DNA of 64,000 nt from an uncultured Bacilli bacterium (GCA_934168325.1 CAKPNG010000001.1:37018-101017); one strand, 5' to 3'. Positions 11,144 to 63,951 are shown, numbered from the stretch's first letter. The notes: a model not told the origin generated them from the letters alone. Program-made: numbers and translations.

Positions 11144-11180
11144 GCTGGGAGTATTTTTTACTCCCAGCTTTCTATTTTAT
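11144..11180. terminator. Bidirectional intrinsic terminator
   Basis: Stem GCTGGGAGT/ACTCCCAGC flanked by T-rich runs on both strands. Confidence 0.65.
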
Positions 11181-11892
11181 ATACCTTATTAAAAGTGTGC
11201 GAAGCATAATAACCAATACCTACGGCATCAGCTTCATCTTCTGATAAAGACACGTCATATTTATCTTTTGCTAATATTTGCATAGCTCTTTTGCGATCTG
11301 TCCGCGTTTTACCTTTAATTCCACAATAATTCCGCCAAGTCGCTGTATGACAAATTTCATAAGGAATTTTTAATTGGTAAACAGTATTAATTAAAACCCC
11401 TTGAAGCCAAGCCAGTTTTTGAAAAACTATCACACCCATTTGACGATTTTCACTTTTATCCTAAAGCTATATTCCTTCAAAAGCAATTAAGTCAGGTGAG
11501 TAATTAATAATCATTGAGTTCAGCCAAACTCTAATTTGGTTAATGCGGTCATCGTCATCACCACCGCCGGCTTCAAATATACCATATTTAACTAATTGTT
11601 CATTATCAAAAATAGCCCAGCCCGTTAAATGGCTTGCCTAATCTAATGCTAGTGTTCTTTTAACTCCTCTCGGCTTTGAAACAATTTCTTTTGTCATTTG
11701 CTTTAACTAATTCTATTGACAAATTGGACAAAAACGTTTATCTCGCTATTTTTTCCAAGTAGAGTAAACTTTATGTCCTTCATCGCACTCAAACACTAAT
11801 TCACTATCTAAATTCTTATATTCTTGAGAAATTAATTTCCATTTGTCCTATGTCAAAGTTTCTTTAATTTGCTCAATTGTTATTTTACTCAT
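11158..11892 (-). CDS. ruvC: RuvC-like Holliday-junction resolvase with N-terminal zinc ribbon; 7 in-frame TAG
   Basis: The C-terminal part is listed ORF 11158-11439 (..DEADAVGIGYYA). Extending upstream through TAGs gives MTKEIVSKPRGVKRTLALD*ASHLTGWAIF...IAFEGI*L*DKSEN, a RuvC N-terminus. Further upstream lies a zinc ribbon (FECDEGH...CPIC). The ATG at 11892-11890 overlaps the dUTPase TGA. Confidence 0.65.
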
Positions 11893-23497: not shown

Positions 23498-25216
23498 TTA
23501 AAAACTCAACTCTCCATCTTCAATTTCATAATTCTCAATAAAAATCTGTGGCGTTATTCTGCCCATCCAAGAGTTTAAATTAGCTCTACCGACCAAATTC
23601 ATTTTTACTTCTCCAAATTCTTGAATTTCATTAATTAAATCAGTTGCATGAAATTTCATAAATGCAATTCCATTTTTCTCAATTTTTAAAGTGTCCTTAC
23701 GAGTCCCCATTATTTGGATATCATGGACGTTAAAATTTAAATCAGTTATATAAATTAAAGGTTCTTTATTATTAGTTGACCAAATTGCTTCATTTTGAGC
23801 GATTTCAGTTATTAAGCTATTTAAATCGTGAGCGACAGCGGGGCGTTCAAAATTAACCTCATAAACATTATTGGAGAAATCATAGCTCGCAAGATCAGTA
23901 TCAGCAATTTTCATTAACTGGGTTAAGTTTTTATCGGGAAGAGAACACCCGCAAGCATTTGAATGGCCCGCAGTATATTCAAAAAGACTAGTTTGTTCCA
24001 AATAGGATTTAAAGTCAGCCAGCTCACAATTGGATAATCCTCTTGCACTTCCGCGGTCATAACCCTCATCATTAAGTCTTGCTACAATTGTAGGACGTTG
24101 ATATTTCTGACTTAATCTCATAGCAAGCAATCCATTAAGCTCACTCGGAAAGACTTCATCTTCTAATCTGACAAATAAAATTTTATGTTCCAATAAATCA
24201 TATTTACTTATCTTAATTTCAAGACTATCCATCGCACTATCCAAAATTTTATTTTGTTTAGAACGATTATTAGTTGCTTCACGAATTGCTTCATTCACAA
24301 CCTCCGTCATAAGTCCTTTTTCGCCACGCTTATTTGAAGGGACTAATTCATGTCCATTAACAAAAGCTTGAAATAATCTTGTTTTTTCTGGCATTGACCC
24401 TACACGAATCGTAGCATTAATAAGAGGAACAATATAAAAAGCGATTGTAGTAGGATTTATTTTCCCACCCATTGAATAGGATTGGGCTTCAATAAATTTT
24501 TGAAGTCCATAATTTTTTATATTAGAGAAACCGAGTTTCCATATCGCTTGATTTTCTATTTCACGACCGTCCATAACATCTCCACAAACACCAACTGCAC
24601 ATAAATCAAGATAATTATCAGCATCAGTAAATCTATAATGGTCGTCCAAGGCTCGACAAAATTGCCAAGCAATTCCAGCTCCAGATAAAGCTTTATTCTC
24701 ATATGCAGGACTAGTTTGATTGTTGATAAGAGTCATATTCGGTGGAATTTCACTATCTGGTTCAAGCTCATGATGATCAAGAACAATAACAGGACAATTA
24801 AATTCTTTAATAAATTGCCCATCATTTGAACTGGCATCCGCAATAATAACTAAATCATAATCTTTTTCAATCATCGCTTCCCAAACATCTTCTAATCCAT
24901 GTTGTTTATGCTCATGGAAATAACCAGTAATTATTATTTGTGGAAAATTCTTTTTTAAATAGTTAATTAAAATTGAAGCTGATGTTAAACCATCAGCATC
25001 GCAGTCAATAATCGTTCCTACATTAATTTTTTCTTTTACATCAACAATTTCACGAAAAATCGCGACCGCCCGCTCAATATTGGATAATTTACCCCAATTT
25101 TCAATGTCATCGTATGTTGGATTTTTAAAATTTTCTAAATTCTTAATTCCTCTACTTAAAAGCAAATTATCAACATAATCTGCTTTAAAATTTTCATTTA
25201 CTAATTTAACTTGCAT
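23498..25216 (-). CDS. RecJ-like DHH-family ssDNA exonuclease
   Basis: DHH motifs DCDADGLTS and ..DHHE.. Confidence 0.65.
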   Translation of the reverse strand: MQVKLVNENFKADYVDNLLLSRGIKNLENFKNPTYDDIENWGKLSNIERAVAIFREIVDVKEKINVGTIIDCDADGLTSASILINYLKKNFPQIIITGYFHEHKQHGLEDVWEAMIEKDYDLVIIADASSNDGQFIKEFNCPVIVLDHHELEPDSEIPPNMTLINNQTSPAYENKALSGAGIAWQFCRALDDHYRFTDADNYLDLCAVGVCGDVMDGREIENQAIWKLGFSNIKNYGLQKFIEAQSYSMGGKINPTTIAFYIVPLINATIRVGSMPEKTRLFQAFVNGHELVPSNKRGEKGLMTEVVNEAIREATNNRSKQNKILDSAMDSLEIKISKYDLLEHKILFVRLEDEVFPSELNGLLAMRLSQKYQRPTIVARLNDEGYDRGSARGLSNCELADFKSYLEQTSLFEYTAGHSNACGCSLPDKNLTQLMKIADTDLASYDFSNNVYEVNFERPAVAHDLNSLITEIAQNEAIWSTNNKEPLIYITDLNFNVHDIQIMGTRKDTLKIEKNGIAFMKFHATDLINEIQEFGEVKMNLVGRANLNSWMGRITPQIFIENYEIEDGELSF

Positions 25217-26276
25217 TTACTTTTACTCTACCTTTCAATAATTTCCTAAAAATTTCGGGACCATGGTCAGTTGGACTATCTTTTAAATTTGTTAATCCTT
25301 CTCTATCATAAACAAATGAAAAATTACAGTATTCAGAATATTTTCTGCACAGTTTATAAAGTTTATTGAAATATTTATCTTCGCCTGGTTTTTCCTCATT
25401 ATCAAAACAAATAACAATTTCTTTTGGCTTTCCATATTTTAAAAGCTGACGAAGTTGCCATTTATTGAACTGCGAACCGCAAACTGCTACTGCACAATTA
25501 ACAAAGTTTTTTGAACCCCAACTTTCTATCTGTAGAATTGCCTTTTCACTCTCGCATAAATAACAAATTCCTGTTCTTTTAATATTCTGATAATTAGCCT
25601 TCAACCCATATAAATTACAAGAAAGAGGATGGCTATACCACTTACCCTCAACCTTAATTGGTCCATATTTGCCATATTGTTCAACTTCATCAGGATTGAG
25701 TGCCCGCCCTCTAATTCCAATTAGTCGATTTTTCATATCATAATGTGGGATTATAATTTTATTTTGACTAATTGAATAACAAATTCCAAATTTATCCATT
25801 GCCGCAGGAGTAATTCCATCATTAAGCCATTCTGGTCTATAACTTTTTACGAAAGTATCAAGAACAGAGGAGTCATATTCAGGCAAAAGTGGAATTTTTC
25901 TATGTTCCTTATTTTCTCTAATTGACCGATAAACTTCAAGTTGCGATTCATTTTTATAGTTGGAGCAATTTAAAACTACTAAATAAATATCCAAATACCA
26001 GTCATAATCGCGGCCACGGGCTTCATAATAATTTTTTAAAAACTTAAAAATTGACATATTTCCACATTCAGTAAAACAAACAAATAATTTATTATTTTTA
26101 TAATAATAAAGTTTCTCTGACGCATTTTCTAAATTTTCATTATGGCAAGCAGTTTTACAAACCAAAAAATCTCCCTTATCAATAAAAGGTATTTTAAGAC
26201 GAGTTAATAGCTTTTTAATTTTATCATCATCAATTTCTCTAATAATTTCTTCGTAATCAATTGCCATTAAGTGCAT
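25206..26276 (-). CDS. DnaG-like primase
   Basis: CHC2 zinc finger (CKTACHNE...VCFTECG) and a Toprim-like acidic motif. Confidence 0.55.
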   Translation of the reverse strand: MHLMAIDYEEIIREIDDDKIKKLLTRLKIPFIDKGDFLVCKTACHNENLENASEKLYYYKNNKLFVCFTECGNMSIFKFLKNYYEARGRDYDWYLDIYLVVLNCSNYKNESQLEVYRSIRENKEHRKIPLLPEYDSSVLDTFVKSYRPEWLNDGITPAAMDKFGICYSISQNKIIIPHYDMKNRLIGIRGRALNPDEVEQYGKYGPIKVEGKWYSHPLSCNLYGLKANYQNIKRTGICYLCESEKAILQIESWGSKNFVNCAVAVCGSQFNKWQLRQLLKYGKPKEIVICFDNEEKPGEDKYFNKLYKLCRKYSEYCNFSFVYDREGLTNLKDSPTDHGPEIFRKLLKGRVKVNAS

Positions 26277-26745
26277 CCCTCACTTTCTTAATTTCTTGTA
26301 TTTCTTCATCTGTCCAGTCATTAATTAATGGCATTGAAGGTCCGTCATAAATATTAATTACATTAAGTCGACTATCAGTTATAAACAGGTCTTCAATTCT
26401 CATTGTTCCCAAATCAACATAAGACCATATCCTCACTTGCGACCATTGTCCGCTACGAACTTTAAACACATCAAAAACACGATTTGGTTCCTTACATACA
26501 TTACTTACTATAATTTCTTTTAACATATCTAATTCTTCATTTGTTGGGCGGGCCATAATAATACCATTATCAGCTTTATTAATAGTTGCACGACCACCCG
26601 CGAGAGAAGCTTCATTACGAATTTCTCTATTATTATCCGCTGAAGCATTAACTTGCGTGGAAGTAAAAATTCCTACATTTAATTCTACCGCTAAATCTTT
26701 AAGAGCAGTAGTCATCAACAAAAGCAACTCCAGTTATCTCCATTA
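26257..26745 (-). CDS. dnaB: DnaB-family replicative helicase, C-terminal part (exon 2 or C-fragment)
   Basis: LKDLAVELNVGIFTSTQVN...SLAGGRATINKADNGIIMARP corresponds to DnaB SRsLKaLAKEL..LSQLNR..SDLRESG.IEQDAD. Frame open upstream to a TAA at about 26747. Confidence 0.7.
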
Positions 26746-27770
26746 TTTCTAATGGCCCGGACTATATCTTAAATGGTTTTATATAACCACCTATAACCGT
26801 TTCGAGTATCTTACCACTAGATACCCTACTCTAAGATTGACCTTAGATAGTCTCTACAGGTTTTATAAAGAGAGTTTATTAATTTCCGCAAATTGATCGG
26901 CAGTAATGCGGATAAATTTATATTTTCGTTCACATCTATTATTCTAACAGATGCTACTATAAATTTTATTATATGTAGTATTATATTTTTCTGTAAAACA
27001 CCGAATAGATAAAGAAGTATCTTCAATTTGACCAGTAGTTTCATTAATCTTTGCTACGCAACATTTAAATCGAGCTAAAAAATTTTTTAACCATTTTTCT
27101 TTTTCGTTTTCTTTTATCCAATAATAACCATGATGTGCTTGCCCAGTATTACTTGCTTTTTGTATAGCACGAAAATCAACTCCAGTATTCCTACAGGCAT
27201 CCCGGAAGCCCTTATGAATAGCAATTAAATGAAACTAATATCCATCAAAAGAATATTGCAAAATATTATCATATTTTGCCTAATGAGTTTCTTTTAATTT
27301 TTCTATTACTTGTGGGCTATAAACTGGATTTAATTTTCCACCCTCTAAGATATTATATGATGTAGTTGCATGAGTCTACTGTATTAAATCATATTCATGC
27401 TAATAAGCTAGTTCTTCAGTAGAATCTAAAATTTCAAATACTTCGAAATTAAAAGCCGACTTTCCATATTTATTATAATCATTTTGTATTTTATAATTAG
27501 GATGCGTATGGCTTTTTAATTTACGAAAATGCTAATGTTCTCGTTTTTTTGGATCAGTTGTAATACCAATATAAAAACTGCCATTTTTTATATTAGTAAT
27601 TTTATAATAATAAAATTTCATAATTAAACTCCTTTATAATTTCCCACGGTATTACCATATCCCATAAGGACTTAGGCTCTCTTACCACCTTAATCTTTCG
27701 ATTTAGTTGACCGTTAGCCATTTAAATAAATGACCCCGCTGGTAAACGGAAAAGTTATATATACGACAAA
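26746..27770 (-). mobile_element. About 1 kb insertion in dnaB carrying a GIY-YIG homing endonuclease (group I intron-like or intronless split)
   Basis: The DnaB reading frame breaks about 18 codons before the stop of ORF 27714-29945 and resumes in ORF 26257-26727. The endonuclease gene fills the gap. Boundaries approximate. Confidence 0.5.
26863..27622 (-). CDS. GIY-YIG homing endonuclease, 6 in-frame TAG
   Basis: RBS aaaggag then ATG 27622. MKFYYYKITNIKNGSFYIGITTDPKKREH*H... with YNILEGG. The ORF track shows only a frame-shifted C-terminal fragment (26826-27044). Confidence 0.7.
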
Positions 27771-29945
27771 TTTTTTATCGTTTCTCAATCCATGTCCTCG
27801 AAATTCAGACAATAACGCAGGTGAAATAAAAATATAGTCATAAAAAATAAAATCAATTTGATGAAGAATTGCTTGCTCTCTTATAATATTTTGCAAAGTT
27901 TGAATATTCGGATCGGGAATACGAATAATTGTAAAATTATCCTCATACTCTTTCATTATGGTATAAGCACCTTGCAATCGTTTTTCAACCTCTTTATCAA
28001 AATGTCCATATTTAAATACGCTTTCGGGAACTCCACTTAAATAGGACAAAACTTTCTTTTGGGCTTGCTCAATCATTTGTTCAGTAATTATAAATAAAAT
28101 ATGTTGATTGCTTCCTTGCTGTTCCCATTTGCCTGTTTGCTCATCATATCTAATTGGAAAAGCCAAATAGCAAGCATCCGCGAAAGCAGTAGAGGTATTA
28201 TGAGTAGTAATATAATCATTAATTAAAAATAAATGAGATTCATTATCTACTTGGAAGCAAGTCATATCTGTAAATTTTCCAGTAGGCTGAATATTGACAA
28301 TAACATTGTTGTCTCGGCGCTCATTGCGTTTTTCATTATTAGCGTAATCAAAAGCAATTTGTTTTTTTCTTGTTAAACGAAAAAGAGCTATTTTTTCTTG
28401 TTTATTACATTGGATATGAACTCTATAACAAATATGAGTAGGTTTATGCTTATCTTCTGTAATTGTTGCAATATACCCAAGCTCCCAGCATATTTGCTGG
28501 ACTTGTTTAGCCATTTGCTTACTAATAGAAAAATAGCTGATGCGTCCTTTTTGATCAATTGTTCCATCTGTATCTAAAAGCCCTTGTAATAAAGCCTTTC
28601 GTTGTTTAATTGATCCCTCTAGATAATCTTCTGGAATAAATTTATCTTCACTTTTACAATTAATTAATTGTGGGTAATTTTTTAAAAGCTCATCAACATG
28701 AAGATTAGTTCTATCTGTTATTTGTTGTTTAAATTTAAATGTCCATCCATAGTTAAATTGTGAATTTTTCTTATAATTTAAATTAAGCAGGCTAGCTATA
28801 GAAGCTACAAGCTCTTCATCAGCACTACTAAATGTAAAAGCAGAAGAAGGACTATACATTCTAAAACTACCATCACCAAGTGCAGCACCCATAACATAAG
28901 GATCAGGATATAATATTTTTTCTTCTTTTTGTAAGGGTTTGTTTAAGGGGACTGAATAATGATAAGCCCCATCTGATAATTGTATCTGTTGATTGACTAA
29001 TTGCTCAGTAGTAAAAACATTTAGTTTTTTCTTATTTTTTGCGCGGCTATTAAAAACACTCCATAAATGATCTTTACAACATTCAGTTGTTCTACCATCT
29101 TTAAAAGTAATTTTGTAAATCTCTTTAGGTTCTATTTGTGGGTAAACGCCAATAATTTGTGTAGGCTTTCCATCGTCTCCCCAAAGAGAATCTCCTATAT
29201 TTAATTCTCCAATTGTTCTTTCACCATTAGGTGTCGGAATTTTTAAATAATTAGGTAAGGCTTTGCCACACCCCGATGGAGCTGATCTAATTGTTAAACA
29301 ACCTTTTTGTGCTCCACTTAAAACTTGATTATAAATTGTTCCTTGTAGCGGGATTCCAATTTCAGCTCCAACTTTTAAATTCCCAATTAATTCATCAAGT
29401 CCGTCTGTTAATTTTACAACATTAATTTCACTATTTAAGGAATATTCATTTTCCAACTTCAATAATTTTTGTTTAACATTGGTGCAAATTTCTTCAATTG
29501 TCGTATTTTCGAAACGACCATTAACTTCCGCAAATTTTGTGCTTAAAGCATCATCACAATAATAATCACTAATATCAAAACCTTGTTTTTGTAAATCTCT
29601 TAATAAATTGATTTTTTTTAATTTTAAATAATAATATTGAAATCCACTGGTATCTTCCGCAACTAAATCCAATATATCTTGTATATATTCTCTACCATTC
29701 TGTTCATTAAAAGTATGAATTGCTTTTGGATTTGACGATAGATAATTTTCAATATCAATAACGGAAATTTTTTTCATTCCCTGGCTATATAAACCGCTTA
29801 TTGCTGTAAATATATATTTTTGAAATCTTGTATTAAAATCATTTACACTTAAATTAAATTTATCTGTCTGCGATAATAGCGTCGGGTTATTCGCTAAATG
29901 TCCAAGCACTTCCTGAATAGCATTTTTATCAGTAATACTTTTCAC
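27714..29945 (-). CDS. dnaB: DnaB-family helicase N-terminal part (exon 1 or N-fragment) containing an intein; last ~18 codons probably read into the insertion
   Basis: DnaB N-domain, then LTDGLDEL...GCLTIRSAPSGCGK | intein | TSTAFADACYLAF...IFYDYIFI (Walker A and H2). Exon end estimated near 27771. Confidence 0.75.
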   Translation of the reverse strand: MKSITDKNAIQEVLGHLANNPTLLSQTDKFNLSVNDFNTRFQKYIFTAISGLYSQGMKKISVIDIENYLSSNPKAIHTFNEQNGREYIQDILDLVAEDTSGFQYYYLKLKKINLLRDLQKQGFDISDYYCDDALSTKFAEVNGRFENTTIEEICTNVKQKLLKLENEYSLNSEINVVKLTDGLDELIGNLKVGAEIGIPLQGTIYNQVLSGAQKGCLTIRSAPSGCGKALPNYLKIPTPNGERTIGELNIGDSLWGDDGKPTQIIGVYPQIEPKEIYKITFKDGRTTECCKDHLWSVFNSRAKNKKKLNVFTTEQLVNQQIQLSDGAYHYSVPLNKPLQKEEKILYPDPYVMGAALGDGSFRMYSPSSAFTFSSADEELVASIASLLNLNYKKNSQFNYGWTFKFKQQITDRTNLHVDELLKNYPQLINCKSEDKFIPEDYLEGSIKQRKALLQGLLDTDGTIDQKGRISYFSISKQMAKQVQQICWELGYIATITEDKHKPTHICYRVHIQCNKQEKIALFRLTRKKQIAFDYANNEKRNERRDNNVIVNIQPTGKFTDMTCFQVDNESHLFLINDYITTHNTSTAFADACYLAFPIRYDEQTGKWEQQGSNQHILFIITEQMIEQAQKKVLSYLSGVPESVFKYGHFDKEVEKRLQGAYTIMKEYEDNFTIIRIPDPNIQTLQNIIREQAILHQIDFIFYDYIFISPALLSEFRGHGLRNDKKFVVYITFPFTSGVIYLNG
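28197..29261 (-). mobile_element. Intein with LAGLIDADG homing-endonuclease domain in the DnaB P-loop
   Basis: Hint N-block KIPTPNGERTIGEL; LAGLIDADG motifs YVMGAALGDGSF and LLQGLLDTDGTID; C-terminal ITTHN followed by Thr+1. Start is Ala229 (restores GCGKT) or Cys226. Confidence 0.7.
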
Positions 29946-38333: not shown

Positions 38334-39413
38334 TTAATCCCACTCCTGAATTTTCTTCGCGGCGCCACGTCGTTTTGACAGCCAAAACAAATTTTTCTTT
38401 GCTCTAGTAATTGCAACATAATTTACAAAAATTTCATCACTGTTCCATTTATTAATTGCTCCATAAACCACAACATTATCAGCTTCAAGTCCTTTTGCAC
38501 TATGAATTGTTAATACTTTAACTGAATTTTTTTCCATTAACTCATTTAAATGAGCAACGGTCATATTTTTCATTTTAAAAGTATCATTAGGAATTTCATA
38601 AACATTTAATAGAGCTTGCATTTCTTCAACCTAACGATTAGAACGACACAAAATAAACCAGCTTTTATAATCTCGCTTATTTTTAATTTGTTGAATTAAT
38701 TTTAAAAAAGAACTCCAATTAATAAATTGAACAGTTCCACTATTTTCGGTCATTGCCCGCGAATCATCTCGATAATCCCAGCCTTTTTGTGCAATTGTTT
38801 GCTTCGCGAAAGAAAGAATTTGTTGTGCATTTCTATAATTTTGTGTTAATTTAAAAACAGAAACATCTGGCTGTTGCATAATACGAAGCAACATATCAGG
38901 ACGACTCCCATTAAATTGATAAATTGTTTGTCGTAAATCGCCAATTAACATAAAATTTTTTGGTTTAATCATATCAATTAAAAAGTCAAATTGCTCGGCG
39001 GTGCTGTCTTGAGCTTCATCAAGAAACAAATATTGAACTGGCTGAATGCAATTAGGGTGTAGTCTAACCATTTCAAAAAGTTTATCAAAATCTTCGTTTT
39101 CTACAGCTTCGGAAACATCATAACCACAACACTTTAACAAATATGAAGCATAACTATGAACTGTTGAAATATGAATACCTTTTGGATTTTTTAATCGCCG
39201 TAAAATATTATCAGCCGCCAAATTTGTAAAAGTAATTGCAACAATTTGACTTGGATGAATATGCCGCTCTTCAATTAACCATCTAATTCTTTCTGTTAAA
39301 CAATGTGTCTTTCCAGCAGCGGCGGCGCAGAGAATAACAGAATAAGGCTTGGTTGTATAGACTACTTCTTTTTGCTCCAAACTTAATTCCATTTTAACCA
39401 CCTGCCTTTTCAT
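38334..39413 (-). CDS. UvrD/PcrA-like helicase, continuous only through one in-frame TAG (38631-38633)
   Basis: N-part Walker A CAAAAGKTH and TFTNLAA (motif Ia). After TAG then V-E-E, the same frame continues into ORF 38334-38621 with motifs V/VI (HSAKGLEADNVVV, VAITRAKK). Confidence 0.7.
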
Positions 39414-40179
39414 TTAAGAGAATTTTGCTTCCATAGAAGTCAATGTAGAATTTTTCACGAGCATTTAATTGGTCTTTTGGACAAACTTCAACTAACTTAA
39501 ATAAAAAACGGTCTAAGCCATCCTGTGCCATTACAGTGTGGAGATAAGAATGAGCAATTGTGCCTATTCCTAATGCTGATTTAACGTGTTCAGTCCATCT
39601 CTTCATTATATCAACACTACGGCCAATGTAAAATTCTCCCGTTTTAAGTCGTGTAATTTTATAAATGCCGCTCACTGGAGCTTTTAAAACCCGTTTTTCC
39701 ATTAAATCAAGCGGCCGCCTAATAAACTCATTATAAATTAATTTATTTAAAGCTTCTTTATTAGTTAAAATAGGACGAATTTGCTCTAAATTTTTTATAT
39801 CTGATTTTGCCTCATCAGTCAAACAAATACGATAAAAATCTTTATGCTCTTCAATTTCTCGCCGTTTCAAAATATCAGCATTAATCGCGGCCTGCTTTTC
39901 TTTCATTTCATTTAAATCATTCCAAACACAAGCTCGCTCATCTTTTAATAATTCTAATTCGCGGAACTCATTTTGGTATTGATTTTCTAATTGTTCCTGG
40001 ATACCATTCTTTAATTGTTGATTTTCTTCATATAAATCTTGAATTGTATTATTTAAATTCTAATATTCATTTAATAAATTCGCCTGCGTGTGTTTATTTA
40101 TTATAATTTCATGAATTAAATATCCAATTATTAAACCAAAAAATAGACTTAAACCTAAACATATAAATAAAATTTCCAT
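39394..40179 (-). CDS. Membrane-anchored coiled-coil protein with C-terminal GIY-YIG nuclease domain; 1 in-frame TAG
   Basis: GIYKITRLKTGEFYIGRSVDIMKRWTEH. Upstream extension through TAG (40060-40062) reaches ATG 40179, with an N-terminal TM segment MEILFICLGLSLFFGLIIGYLI. Confidence 0.55.
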
Positions 40180-60799: not shown

Positions 60800-61055
60800 A
60801 GAAAAGAGTTTCTTATTTTCCTTTCTGACTCTTTTCTCTCTCGACCTCTCCTATAAAACAGGCACAACGCGTAAAGTGAAGTGGCGGTTCCAACCCCGCG
60901 TAAATGTTGAGGATAGGAGATTCTGACAAAGTTTCTGAAATCACGGTGGAGTGGTTGCCCATCGGAGAGAATACTTTATTCATAGTAAGATTGTCGCTTA
61001 CGGTGAGAAGTGTTTGAACATAAATAGCAACCTGTCCTACCCCATTAAATGTTAG
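60800..61055 (+). other. GC-richer structured leader/ncRNA candidate
   Basis: No coding frame. Long-range pairing CTCTCCTAT...ATAGGAGAT encloses nested GC stems. Lies downstream of the repeated promoter element. Confidence 0.35.
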
Positions 61056-61625: not shown

Positions 61626-61702
61626 GAGGCGGTAGTCCAACGGCAGCAGACAATGGACTTAAAATCCATCAAGTGAGGGTTCGAATCCCTCTCGCCTTAC
61701 CA
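61626..61702 (+). tRNA. tRNA with anticodon UAA (Leu-like) and a short variable arm
   Basis: Acceptor GAGGCGG/TCGCCTT with A73 and CCA. T arm GAGGG-TTCGAAT-CCCTC. Anticodon stem ATGGA/TCCAT with loop CTTAAAA. Confidence 0.55.
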
Positions 61703-61985
61703 TTAGGTTTTTCAACCTACCCTTAAAATTGAGATTAGAATAAAACACAAAGATGATGCTTTGAAGTATAAAAGCGGTCCGCACTTTTAGTAAGATTTTT
61801 TAATTATATAAATCCTATTTTATCCCATTATTTCTTGGAAAGGAGCAGAAAAATGGATAAGCGTATATTTAAGAAAACTGGTGAAGAACTTCAACAGTAT
61901 CTAGCATTTAAGCGAAAACATTTTTTTGTTCCCGCCAAGAAAGGAAAAGGTTCTTTTAAAAGGCAAGAAAAACATTCAAAAAATT

Positions 61986-62059
61986 TCGAGAACGTAGTGT
62001 AATGGTAGCACCTTTCATTTGGGATGAAAGAGAGTGGTTCGAGTCCAACGTTTTCGACC
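61986..62059 (+). tRNA. tRNA-Pro(UGG)-like with irregular T-stem
   Basis: Acceptor CGAGAAC/GTTTTCG with A and CCA. D-arm TAGTGTAATGGTAGCAC. Anticodon stem TTTCA/TGAAA with loop TTTGGGA. GGTTCGAGTCC T-loop. Confidence 0.45.
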
Positions 62060-62205
62060 ATCAGTTCTTTTAGAAAAGGAGTGAAGCCTATGATTGTATT
62101 TGAAAGAATAAAGGAAAAGGACAGTCCGCCTAAAAGATGAGACTTGTTGAGAGTCGGTAAACTATCAACTCAGTTTTGTAGTTCTGAATAAAAACTACAA
62201 AGTAT

Positions 62206-62282
62206 GGCAATATAGCTCAGTTGGTGGTAGCATTTGACTGTTAATCAAAGGGTCAAGAGTTCAAGTCTCTTTATTGCCTCCA
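62206..62282 (+). tRNA. tRNA-Asn(GUU)
   Basis: Acceptor GGCAATA/TATTGCC with T and CCA. Anticodon stem TTTGA/TCAAA with loop CTGTTAA. T arm AAGAG-TTCAAGT-CTCTT. Confidence 0.7.
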
Positions 62283-62357
62283 TGGGGTGGCTTCGCCCTG
62301 ACTATATAAAAATGAAGCTTGTGGGCATATTTTCTATTCAAAAAGTGCCCATTTTAT

Positions 62358-62429
62358 CGGATAATAGTTCAACGGGAGAACAAAGAGGTCGCGCCTTTTA
62401 TGGTAGTTCAATTCTACCTTATCCGACCA
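62358..62429 (+). tRNA. tRNA, anticodon read as CGC (Ala?), compressed variable region
   Basis: Acceptor CGGATAA/TTATCCG with A and CCA. D GTTC-AACGGGA-GAAC. T GGTAG-TTCAATT-CTACC. Anticodon loop GTCGCGC. Confidence 0.45.
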
Positions 62430-62534
62430 TTTTCATTATCGTGTATTGATGATGGAAACTCCTATATTCGGTGTTATTTCCGAATTTAACTGGTCTTTGG
62501 GTATTTCCCAGTCCAAGAAATAACCATTCGCTGT

Positions 62535-62608
62535 GGTTTAGTAGTTTAATGGTAGGATAAAGCTCTTGTAAAGCTTAGGCAACAGTCCGATTTTGTTCTA
62601 AACCTCCA
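62535..62608 (+). tRNA. tRNA-Thr(UGU)
   Basis: Acceptor GGTTTAG/CTAAACC with T and CCA. Anticodon stem AAGCT/AGCTT with loop CTTGTAA. Confidence 0.6.
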
Positions 62609-62740
62609 TCAGTGAAGTCTCGATTACCGATTGCCGGAACTCCACCACAAACAGTTAAATGTCAAATAGTGAATCGAGAGCTATTTGCGATGTAGTTTTC
62701 TGGTAGGTTTTCTACGTAAAAAAGCCTCCTATTTGCTGGT

Positions 62741-62812
62741 GGTCCGGTAGTTTAATGGTAAAACGCTCTCAGGCACGAGAGAAATAGGATGTTCGAATCC
62801 CTAAAGACCTCA
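62741..62812 (+). pseudogene. Degenerate tRNA-like element
   Basis: Good D-arm (GTTT-AATGGTA-AAAC) and GTTCGAATCC T-loop, but the acceptor and T stems do not close and the anticodon loop is 6 or 8 nt. Confidence 0.3.
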
Positions 62813-63587
62813 TAAGTGAAGCGATTTGTAGGTGTTAAATTTCCTGCTCCTTGAGTGGAAACCTTCGGCGTTGTGATTAGTCGCCTTATCTATCCAAGAT
62901 ATTTCCCATATTCACTTGTAAAAGAATATGGGAACGCGTTAAGCCTAAAGTTATAATCATAACGTATCTTAGTGAAGAACGAATACCATCGTGCTAAGAA
63001 ATAACCCCGTCCGCGATAGGGACGCAATACATAAGTCGATTTGAGGGATACTTCAATTAGACTAAGGTTAAACGGCGTGAGCTGTCCGACTAGACCAAGG
63101 CTGAACTGAGGTCCGTGCAGGGTTATTGTGCTAATCTAATCGCTCTTAAAAGCATTGTCTCATCGCTCTCACAATAGAAGCTTTAGTGAATAGCTGAAGC
63201 TGAACCCAAGAAGACGGTCGAGTGGCATCGCCCGCAATCGTTGGGAAAGCCAATAAGAGAGTTTGTCGTGAAGTTGAAGAAATTCAATGTATAAGATGAG
63301 GTCAAAGTACGAGTAGTCCAAGACAAAGACTTCCCGAATTTTAATGGGGGACTATTTAATAGGTAAATAAATTGCTTTACTTTTCTGAATGGTGGATGAA
63401 AGTTTGTCGTAATCAATCGACGAAAGGTTTGTTGTTGCTAGTGCAACATAGGGCAAGAACTTTTGTCAAGACGTTGGCAAGGGTCAGACTTGTCTTCCTT
63501 TTGGCTGAATATAAGAGAAGATTATGTGAGGTAAGGCGAAGGCCTACGATTGTGGTTATAATTTTAGGTTTAACCTAAAAACTTAAA
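62813..63587 (+). other. About 0.8 kb noncoding, hairpin-rich region inside the tRNA cluster (unclassified ncRNA or intron-like)
   Basis: No ORF over 60 codons. Perfect 9-bp hairpin CCCATATTC..GAATATGGG at about 62905-62935. GACTA/TAGTCC elements. Ends at the intrinsic terminator. Confidence 0.3.
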
Positions 63588-63626
63588 CCGCTCTTTGGGT
63601 TATCAGAGCGGGCATCTTTTTCTTTA
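63588..63626 (+). terminator. Intrinsic terminator
   Basis: CCGCTCT-TTGGGTTATC-AGAGCGG then GCATCTTTTTCTTT. Confidence 0.7.
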
Positions 63627-63672
63627 TTGGGATTTTTTTTGCTCTTTTTAGAAAAATAAAGAGCCGGAATAT

Positions 63673-63746
63673 TGGAGGTTCGTTCAATAGTAGGACTCAT
63701 CTCTCTAAAAGATGGAATCGCGGTGCAAATCCACGGCCTCTAGCCA
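63673..63746 (+). tRNA. Amber suppressor tRNA, anticodon CUA, Gln-like identity
   Basis: Acceptor TGGAGGT/GCCTCTA (U1-A72) with G73 and CCA. D GTTC-AATAGTA-GGAC (G10). Anticodon stem CATCT/AGATG with loop CTCTAAA (CTA at 63705-63707). T CGCGG-TGCAAAT-CCACG. Confidence 0.65.
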
Positions 63747-63876
63747 TGACAGCTTTGAAAGTTCCCCTGTCAAAAATAACAAGAACTTTCAGAAATCGCG
63801 GAGATGGAGAAAAAGAGTCTCGCAAGGGTCATTACCTTGAAATCAGTTATGGCAGTAATAACCTCCGCACCCATAC

Positions 63877-63951
63877 GGTCCCATCATCTAATGGCAAGGA
63901 TATAACCTTTTCACGGTTAAAATATGAGTTCAATTCTCATTGGGACTCCCA
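63877..63951 (+). tRNA. tRNA-Glu(UUC)
   Basis: Acceptor GGTCCCA/TGGGACT with C and CCA. Anticodon stem TAACC/GGTTA with loop TTTTCAC. T ATGAG-TTCAATT-CTCAT. Confidence 0.65.

Follow-up and report, generated by a model that had tools for sequence, protein, structure and literature searches.

Does a replicative helicase gene that annotation breaks into pieces still encode a single protein? This is the question raised by the 64,000-nucleotide (nt) stretch of DNA analysed here, from an uncultured Bacilli bacterium (GCA_934168325.1 CAKPNG010000001.1:37018-101017), which we call the window and number from its first letter. The first-pass annotation had described a DnaB-type helicase whose motifs are split over two open reading frames (ORFs), and both the coordinates and the domain matches agree with it: ORF 27714-29945 has 743 codons from a GTG start, with a DnaB N-terminal domain and a LAGLIDADG_3 domain in Pfam, and ORF 26257-26727 is the C-terminal part of DnaB with the C-terminal helicase motifs. 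Every feature of the locus (ORFs, intron and intein) lies on the minus strand. The same annotation had placed a GIY-YIG endonuclease gene with a ribosome-binding site between the two ORFs, and this gene indeed has an AAAGGAG sequence, exactly six in-frame TAG codons and a Pfam match. We consider it very probable (roughly 0.88) that the helicase gene holds two independent homing elements, a group I intron and an intein, and that the mature protein of 525 amino acids (aa) needs both RNA splicing and protein splicing.

Four occupancy states of the helicase gene

Removing both elements in silico joins ...GLRND to ELLLLMTT... and leaves a 525-aa helicase, and this predicted mature protein was used to search for relatives, which are numbered here as proteins (P) and DNA loci (L). 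The uninterrupted state is represented by P0001 (525 aa), which is 93% identical to the predicted helicase over 100% of its length and gap-free at both junctions. In the alignment, this protein and more distant 518-aa homologues run through SGxGK|T/S... and ...RND|E[LV]LL... without a gap. At the DNA level, the empty intron site of L001 reads ...CGTAATGAT|GAATTG..., and joining exon 1 to exon 2 of the window gives the empty-site sequence and the protein of P0001/L001 (...GLRND|ELLLLMTT...).

Other relatives carry one of the two elements or both. P0002 (880 aa, that is, 525 + 355) has the 355-aa intein insert and lacks the RNA insertion, and L005 has the intein only, as seen in its DNA. P0005 and P0006 have no intein and end in ...GLRNDKKFVVYITFPF..., a stretch read through from the intron; in L002-L004 the intron is the sole insertion, near-identical to that of the window and with its GIY-YIG gene. 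Both elements are present, in other samples, in P0145 and P0150 (743 aa), in 743-aa and 687-aa cluster members and in locus L067. The exact product of the 743-aa ORF is absent from the protein collection searched, in which 743-aa relatives are present. Thus, all four occupancy states (neither, intein only, intron only, both) exist among close relatives.

Where homologues without one or both of the insertions align across the two junctions, they show neither a gap nor an additional residue, so the insertions are not chance interruptions. Read from the sequence, their boundaries are unambiguous, with the intron at 27776-26731 (1046 nt) and the intein at 29261-28197 (355 aa). Exon 1 consists of an N-extein (29262-29945; aa 1-228, from the GTG start to ...APSGCGK), which matches the Pfam DnaB N-terminal domain and aligns with P0001 through ...SGCGK, and of a C-extein part (27777-28196) that opens with Thr+1, the P-loop Thr, and continues through TSTAFADACYLA and Walker B (FYDYIFI) to GLRND, as placed by homologue alignment. 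Exon 2 (26257-26730; ELLLLMTTALKDLAVELNVG...), with motifs H3/H4 through the stop codon, was defined by homologue alignment and by the empty-site DNA.

The RNA insertion and its predicted fold

The RNA insertion (26731-27776) is best read as a td-like group I intron of subgroup IA with P7.1 and P7.2, an assignment to which the empty-site homologues, a sub-threshold match to Rfam RF00028, homology to ORF-less phage introns and covariation in RNAalifold all point. The 5' splice site would lie after U27777, and the last intron nt is G26731. In the predicted internal guide AAUUU-GUCGU (27763-27772), GUCGU (intron nt 10-14) pairs with the end of exon 1, ACGAU, to form P1 (ACGAU/GUCGU) with the canonical U.G pair at the splice site, and a P10 is possible between the guide's AAUUU and the start of exon 2, GAGUU. 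An in-frame TAA (27714-27716), 20 codons into the intron and in J3/4 at the border with P4, ends the translation of exon 1.

We drew the fold with the SIOphi and P100 intron copies and the T4 td intron as guides. In the resulting order, P1 is followed by the P3 5' strand, two hairpins, J3/4, P4-P5, P6/P6a with the endonuclease ORF in its loop, and P7, and then by P7.1, P7.2, GAAAC, the P3 3' strand, P8, P7', P9 and the terminal G. The 5' core of the putative ribozyme (27646-27759) comprises the P3 5' strand (27759-27753), two covarying P3.1/P3.2-like hairpins (27749-27717) and the P4-P5 domain (27714-27646) with its conserved GGUAAGAGAGCCUAAGUCC. The P6a 5' strand (UAUAAAGGAG, 27629-27638) holds the Shine-Dalgarno sequence of the endonuclease gene and pairs with 26874-26864. 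The 3' core (26731-26874) contains the 3' strands of P6a and P6, the R element of P7 (GUAGAGACUAUC), P7.1, P7.2, the P3 3' strand (GGUUAUA), P8, the S element of P7' (AAGAUAUAGUCC), P9 (CCAUUA-GAAA-UAAUGG) and the terminal G.

Other pairings were tried and discarded. A hand fold with CCGUU (28-32)/AACGG (62-66) as P4 and AAGAGAG/CUCUCUU as P6 was dropped after comparison with P100 and SIOphi and after the family alignment; these segments belong to the P3.1-like hairpin and to the conserved P5 extension. Likewise, AUGGCU/GGUUAU was rejected as P3, because the AUGGC hairpin covaries and UAUAACU/GGUUAUA covaries with AAUGCU/AGCAUU and UCUACU/GGUAGA in relatives. Over intron nt 18-61 (27759-27716), L012 and alignment A2 show the P3 5' strand directly after P1 and two covarying hairpins between P3 and J3/4. 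Since P3.1 figures among the optional elements known for group I introns (PMC3873408), this two-hairpin arrangement is probably not new.

The insertion also has recognizable relatives in other phages. Intron nt 62-143 are ~80% identical (blastn) to unannotated spacers of Herelleviridae phages. In the Bacillus phage SIOphi the match lies between two DNA polymerase gene fragments, and Bastillevirinae DNA polymerase introns such as this one are published self-splicing introns (PMC11878797); Listeria phage P100 has a compact, ORF-less copy. A 19-nt P5 motif occurs in 59 viral contigs. A literature search on phage DnaB genes with group I introns returned nothing specific.

For covariation, 10 non-identical members of the closest subfamily, most of them in the DADxDG site of topoisomerase/gyrase Toprim domains, were aligned with their ORFs trimmed. 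From this set RNAalifold recovered P1, P3, both hairpins, the P5 helices, P7.1, P7.2 and P9 independently, and compensatory double changes occur in 29 of the 67 predicted pairs, P1, P3, P7.1, P7.2 and P9 included. P1 covaries with each intron's own exon (GC/CG, AU/CG, AU/GC). The splice-site U.G is retained in nine of the ten aligned rows; the tenth is the window itself, which is shifted by one column and has U.G when read by hand. P4 covaries between subfamilies (ACGGU/ACCGU, ACGGG/CCCGU, UCGGU/ACCGA). A GGUC/GACU pairing proposed by RNAalifold (columns 122-125 with 248-251) is probably a stand-in for P4 plus P7, which the program cannot draw together. The closest relatives of the intron (alignment A2; L013, L014, L034, L043, L050, L054, L061 and L063) sit in the topoisomerase/gyrase Toprim motif ..DAD|DG..; some of these Toprim-site introns have the same ACGAU/GUCGU P1 pairing as the helicase intron, and all have GIY-YIG ORFs in P6a, with no TAG.

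Comparison with L003 points in the same direction. The non-coding 5' ribozyme part differs at one of 155 nt, where a hairpin pair goes from G.U to A-U, and the 132-nt 3' part has three differences, all in the short tail beyond P9, whereas the endonuclease ORF is 5.5% divergent and the flanking exons 9-10%. The non-coding ribozyme parts are thus far more conserved than the exons, which is the pattern expected of a constrained RNA structure.

Some observations weigh against a group I intron. P4, P6 and P7 are invariant within the close family and draw their support from more distant introns only; the invariance of P6 and P7 makes them uninformative for covariation. Whole-window Rfam scans, by gathering score and by E-value, gave no intron match. 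The covariance-model check proposed in the first-pass annotation succeeded in part: a focused 1.5-kb scan matched the 3' half, placing Intron_gpI (RF00028) at 26739-26919 with 30.6 bits (E 1.6e-5) over AAGAUAUAGUCC and the P9 GAAA hairpin, but this score does not reach the gathering score of 50. The whole-window scans likely lose the intron because the core is divided by the 759-nt ORF, which leaves just its 3' half to be scored, and the homologous SIOphi intron is likewise missed by Rfam at gathering. Also on the opposing side, exon 2 has an in-frame ATG (26715) with a GGAG 12 nt upstream, which makes independent translation of a C-terminal fragment physically possible.

This last point would suit a gene that is permanently split, in which a free-standing endonuclease gene or a dead intron separates two helicase polypeptides that assemble non-covalently. 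Gene callers do give the 152-aa fragment as a separate protein, and phage enzymes that are fragmented around mobile elements and reassemble are known (PMC3045599). Here, however, the helicase is interrupted within its RecA-like core, at a point between Walker B and H3, and the boundaries of the insertion are exactly in frame with the uninterrupted allele. Moreover, the insertion has a U.G splice-site pair, a terminal G, R and S elements and covarying P7.1/P7.2 and P9, and its non-coding parts have changed much less than the flanking exons. We regard a permanent split as quite improbable. The first-pass annotation had leaned towards a group I intron over a split gene, and the U.G pair, the terminal G, the covariation and a predicted exon ligation that gives the same junction as in the uninterrupted homologues all favour that choice.

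The recoded endonuclease gene and the intein in the P-loop

The P6a loop of the putative intron holds a gene of 252 codons with a TAA stop (26863-27621), which Pfam and TIGR01453 mark as a GIY-YIG gene and which probably encodes an intron-encoded homing endonuclease. With TAG read as Gln, the product matches Pfam GIY-YIG PF01541 at 38.7 bits (cut-off 22.6; E 1.2e-9) and the NCBIfam model TIGR01453, 'group I intron endonuclease', at 52.1 bits, just under its cut-off of 56.05. Residues 115-252 have no Pfam or NCBIfam match, which includes the DNA-binding domains NUMOD, IENR1 and helix-turn-helix. The AAAGGAG lies 7 nt 5' of the ATG, and the predicted P6a duplex that buries this Shine-Dalgarno sequence has an energy of -16.3 kcal/mol, reached by 0 of 500 shuffles. 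At the other end of the gene, the final codons (..K L S L stop) double as the P6a 3' strand, and the TAA stop lies inside the ribozyme core (P6/P6a region). The six in-frame TAGs are at codons 30, 74, 82, 114, 129 and 226; the sixth is internal and not the stop.

The phage to which this locus belongs is TAG-recoded. TAG makes up 6 of the 14 Gln codons of the endonuclease gene (43%), as against 0/48 in helicase exon 1 plus intein, 0/4 in exon 2 and 0/8 in the primase gene, and in TAG-using genes of the window it reaches 21/48, 14/60 and 7/18. A transfer RNA (tRNA) with a CUA anticodon, an amber suppressor, is encoded at 63673-63746 on the plus strand and is presumed to be needed to translate the endonuclease and the other TAG-containing genes. 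In a small sample, TAG aligns with Gln in homologues (codon 82 is CAG in L003, and relatives have EHQ). The related introns of other phages have GIY-YIG ORFs in the same P6a loop with 0 TAG, which suggests that the TAGs of the window's gene were probably acquired in the recoded lineage.

The first-pass claim that the endonuclease uses the late code inside an early gene is right as far as the code goes and needs a qualification. An endonuclease written in TAG code inside a TAG-free gene is what we see; 'early' and 'late' are words drawn from gene function and codon use. What counts against a sharp division is that TAG genes are not restricted to one strand or block, as the RuvC-like gene at 11158-11892 illustrates, so the early/late partition is approximate. 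This RuvC-like resolvase ORF (minus strand) has an N-terminal zinc-finger-like motif and seven in-frame TAGs, and shares its strand with the TAG-free replication genes.

Were the TAGs true stops rather than recoded Gln, the endonuclease gene would be a decaying pseudogene. Homing endonuclease genes often degenerate once fixed, and both the lack of a DNA-binding domain in Pfam and a TIGR01453 score just below cut-off would fit such decay. Yet the 252 codons contain neither TAA nor TGA in frame, so that TAG accounts for all six stops, and the first of these sits in an EH-Q motif in which standard-code relatives have Gln (EHQ). Five of the six TAGs are kept in L003, where codon 82 is CAG, and the two copies differ by 27 synonymous and 13 non-synonymous codon changes, which together argue that the ORF is under purifying selection and is not a pseudogene. 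In addition, TAG is used heavily by long intact genes of this genome, which also encodes the CUA tRNA. We consider decay to be very unlikely.

Elsewhere in the window, another ORF (39394-40179, minus strand; 261 aa, one TAG) joins a hydrophobic N-terminal segment to a C-terminal GIY-YIG motif (GIYKITRLKTGEFYIGRS) through a coiled-coil-like middle part, an architecture that is unusual for a GIY-YIG protein.

The second insertion, in exon 1, is a putative class 3 LAGLIDADG intein (28197-29261; ALPNY...ITTHN). The first-pass annotation had proposed a 355-aa LAGLIDADG intein in Walker A, and the insert is exactly 355 aa long, lies in the P-loop between GCGK and T, and on removal restores GCGKT; its coordinates, the LAGLIDADG_3 match, its absence from P0001, P0005 and P0006 and its presence in P0002 agree. 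Its two LAGLIDADG motifs are MGAALGDGS and LLQGLLDTDGT (Pfam LAGLIDADG_3, E 1.4e-13). Class 3 inteins are defined by a non-nucleophilic first residue and a Trp/Cys/Thr triplet, most are found in ATPase P-loops of helicase-like proteins, and their prototype is a mycobacteriophage DnaB intein (PMC2807308); M. smegmatis (Msm) DnaBi1 occupies the same P-loop site b, with the P-loop Ser/Thr as its +1 residue (PMC6195587). The insert of the window has Ala1, C62-K-D-H65-L-W67 in block B, Cys335 in block F, T353-H354-N355 in block G and Thr+1 (...ITTHN|TSTAF), and its triplet of W67 (block B:12), C335 (block F:4) and T353 (block G:5) aligns with 6RIX and 6BS8. An Ala start and an atypical splicing class, also suggested at first pass, are thus borne out by this triplet and by homologues that read SGCGK|TS. 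By phmmer, the insert matches the class 3 DnaB mini-inteins of M. chimaera (6RIX/6RIY) and M. smegmatis (6BS8) with E of 2e-10 to 3e-8, in an alignment that pairs H65, W67, C335 and THN and is significant over blocks A-B (E 2e-10) and weak over blocks F-G.

Two features do not favour this assignment. Pfam finds no Hint domain above threshold in the insert (Hom_end_hint, E 0.012), and block B position 7 is Cys, where the studied class 3 inteins have Asp or Ser. Because the Hint profiles stay under threshold, membership in the intein fold rests on the block alignment together with the precise presence/absence polymorphism. The splicing blocks do align to 6RIX, 6RIY and 6BS8; a block alignment of this kind was a check that the first-pass annotation had asked of its intein. 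The intein has no in-frame TAG, which fits its need to be translated in frame with the TAG-free helicase. Cys61 and Cys62 (about 29081-29076) are adjacent, at and next to block B position 7, and close to the catalytic Cys335; M. smegmatis DnaBi1 has a regulatory disulfide that links its catalytic Cys to a second Cys.

That the intein begins instead at Cys226, three residues upstream of Ala229, and splices by the class 1 route can be dismissed for practical purposes. In its favour, Cys is the commonest first residue of inteins. However, homologues that lack the intein have SGCGK|TS, so a Cys226 start would cost the helicase CGK and with it the P-loop, and is excluded for this reason. In addition, the alignment with solved class 3 DnaB inteins begins at residue 2, and these inteins share the Ala-Leu start.

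Proposed mechanism and relation to known systems

We infer from these features that the ribozyme, the intein and both endonucleases are active, and we can propose how they would work, and when. In the RNA, guanosine would attack after U27777 and the exons would be ligated after G26731 to give ...GLRND-ELLLLMTT.... In the protein, Cys335 would attack the N-terminal junction, the N-extein would move to Thr+1 and cyclisation of Asn355 would leave GCGKT. The GIY-YIG enzyme would cut intron-less helicase alleles of co-infecting relatives and thereby have the intron copied into them, and the LAGLIDADG domain would drive homing of the intein at the DNA level. For homing of the intron, the sign is an indirect one: close relatives include alleles both with and without it. 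Without the CUA tRNA, ribosomes would stop at codon 30 of the endonuclease gene, far from the end of the ORF that overlaps the ribozyme core. Given a first TAG at codon 30, the endonuclease is expected only once TAG is read as Gln, presumably late.

We could go further and suggest, tentatively and at less than even odds, that the intron came from standard-code phages, that its endonuclease gene was rewritten after entering the TAG lineage, and that the TAGs and the buried Shine-Dalgarno sequence act as an adaptive two-layer timer. Early in infection, ribosomes would be unable to load or would stop at codon 30, leaving the core free to fold and the essential helicase mRNA to be spliced. Late in infection, the CUA tRNA would open the endonuclease ORF and homing would follow. 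If this is true, the timer would be a case of a selfish element tuned to the genetic-code switch of its host phage.

The phage itself is related to Firmicutes phages. Its genome is metagenomic and ~128 kb long, its helicase is ~32% identical to those of Geobacillus, Leuconostoc, Enterococcus and Staphylococcus phages, and the neighbouring genes encode an AAA_24 ATPase, YorF/YorH-like (SPbeta-like) proteins, a primase and a DHH/RecJ-like protein. A crAss-like identity was considered and ruled out by the identity to the Firmicutes-phage helicases and by the SPbeta YorF/YorH-like neighbours. A megablast of the region against 50,697 phage records gave no match and no annotated near relative among them. 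In L003 (7496-8999), the call for the DHH/RecJ-like gene is only 418 aa long, and another GIY-YIG ORF comes after it; the copy of the window (23498-25216, minus strand) is intact at 572 aa, and this difference is probably a further intron/endonuclease insertion polymorphism in the replication module. The CUA tRNA is part of an array of seven tRNA genes (61626-63951, plus strand), inside which lies a full-length ROOL RNA (62944-63565, plus strand; RF03087, 280 bits, E 3.5e-63). Just 5' of the array is a twister-P1 ribozyme-like match (60850-60917, plus strand; RF03160, 45.5 bits against a gathering score of 67.2, E 7.4e-7).

The intron most resembles the T4 td intron with its endonuclease I-TevI (subgroup IA2). 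In both, P7.1/P7.2 separate P7 from the P3 3' strand, the R/S elements are of the type GACUAUC ... AGAUAUAGUC, an in-frame stop comes soon after the 5' splice site, and a GIY-YIG ORF is looped out from P6a, with its last codons in P6a/P6 and its ribosome-binding site sequestered by RNA structure. Delayed translation of I-TevI is needed for, and protects, td splicing (PMC3073962). In contrast, the host gene there encodes thymidylate synthase, and here a DnaB-type helicase. The intron of the window lacks a canonical P2 and instead has two P3.1-like hairpins after the P3 5' strand, its Shine-Dalgarno sequence lies within P6a and not in a separate hairpin, and its ORF has six TAGs that need a suppressor tRNA. 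The Herelleviridae introns (SIOphi and other Bastillevirinae DNA polymerase introns, Listeria P100) share the ~80% identical P4-P5 domain, including GGUAAGAGAGCCUAAGUCC, as well as P7.1/P7.2 and similar R/S elements; unlike the intron described here, they contain either no ORF or other endonucleases, place a canonical P2 ahead of P3, and are found in standard-code phages and in other genes.

Similarly, the intein can be set beside that of mycobacteriophage Bethlehem and the DnaBi1 inteins of M. smegmatis and M. chimaera. All have Ala1, the Trp/Cys/Thr triplet, a terminal His-Asn, Thr/Ser at +1 and P-loop site b between GK and T/S of DnaB; the H65/W67 numbering is that of Msm DnaBi1, and the full length is shared with the Bethlehem intein. 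The differences are an uncultured gut-metagenome phage as host with a Firmicutes-phage-like replication module, Cys62 in place of Asp/Ser at block B position 7, and a similarity that is limited to the splicing blocks (E about 1e-10).

A stop-codon-recoded intron endonuclease also has a published precedent. Borges et al. (bioRxiv 10.1101/2021.08.26.457843) described, in TGA-recoded 'Agate' phages, a recoded group I intron endonuclease in an early gene and proposed that it is produced only late. In both cases an intron within an early gene encodes the endonuclease, whose ORF shows a preference for the reassigned stop codon, and late production is proposed. The codon is TAG (Gln) here and TGA (Trp) there, and the same gene here also carries an intein; moreover, for the present locus the intron structure, the exact boundaries, the standard-code relatives with 0 TAG and the way in which the Shine-Dalgarno sequence overlaps P6a have been worked out. 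Each component is therefore of a known kind, and since the recoding of an intron endonuclease has already been described for TGA-recoded phages, the novelty is modest. Specific to the window are the TAG version of this recoding, the exact boundaries, the standard-code relatives, the Shine-Dalgarno sequence inside P6a and the four occupancy states.

Since the ribonucleotide reductase genes of SPbeta, it has been known that a gene can carry an intron as well as an intein. For annotation, the consequence is that three called genes (687/743, 252 and 152 aa) are, on our reading, one helicase gene plus two mobile elements, an arrangement of intron and intein that standard pipelines and the Rfam gathering threshold miss. 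For the biology of these phages, the locus would be a natural test bed, with four occupancy states available for comparison in closely related genomes. It may help to determine whether stop-codon reassignment gates the expression of an intron endonuclease, as proposed for TGA-recoded phages, and how RNA-level and protein-level parasites coexist in one essential early gene.

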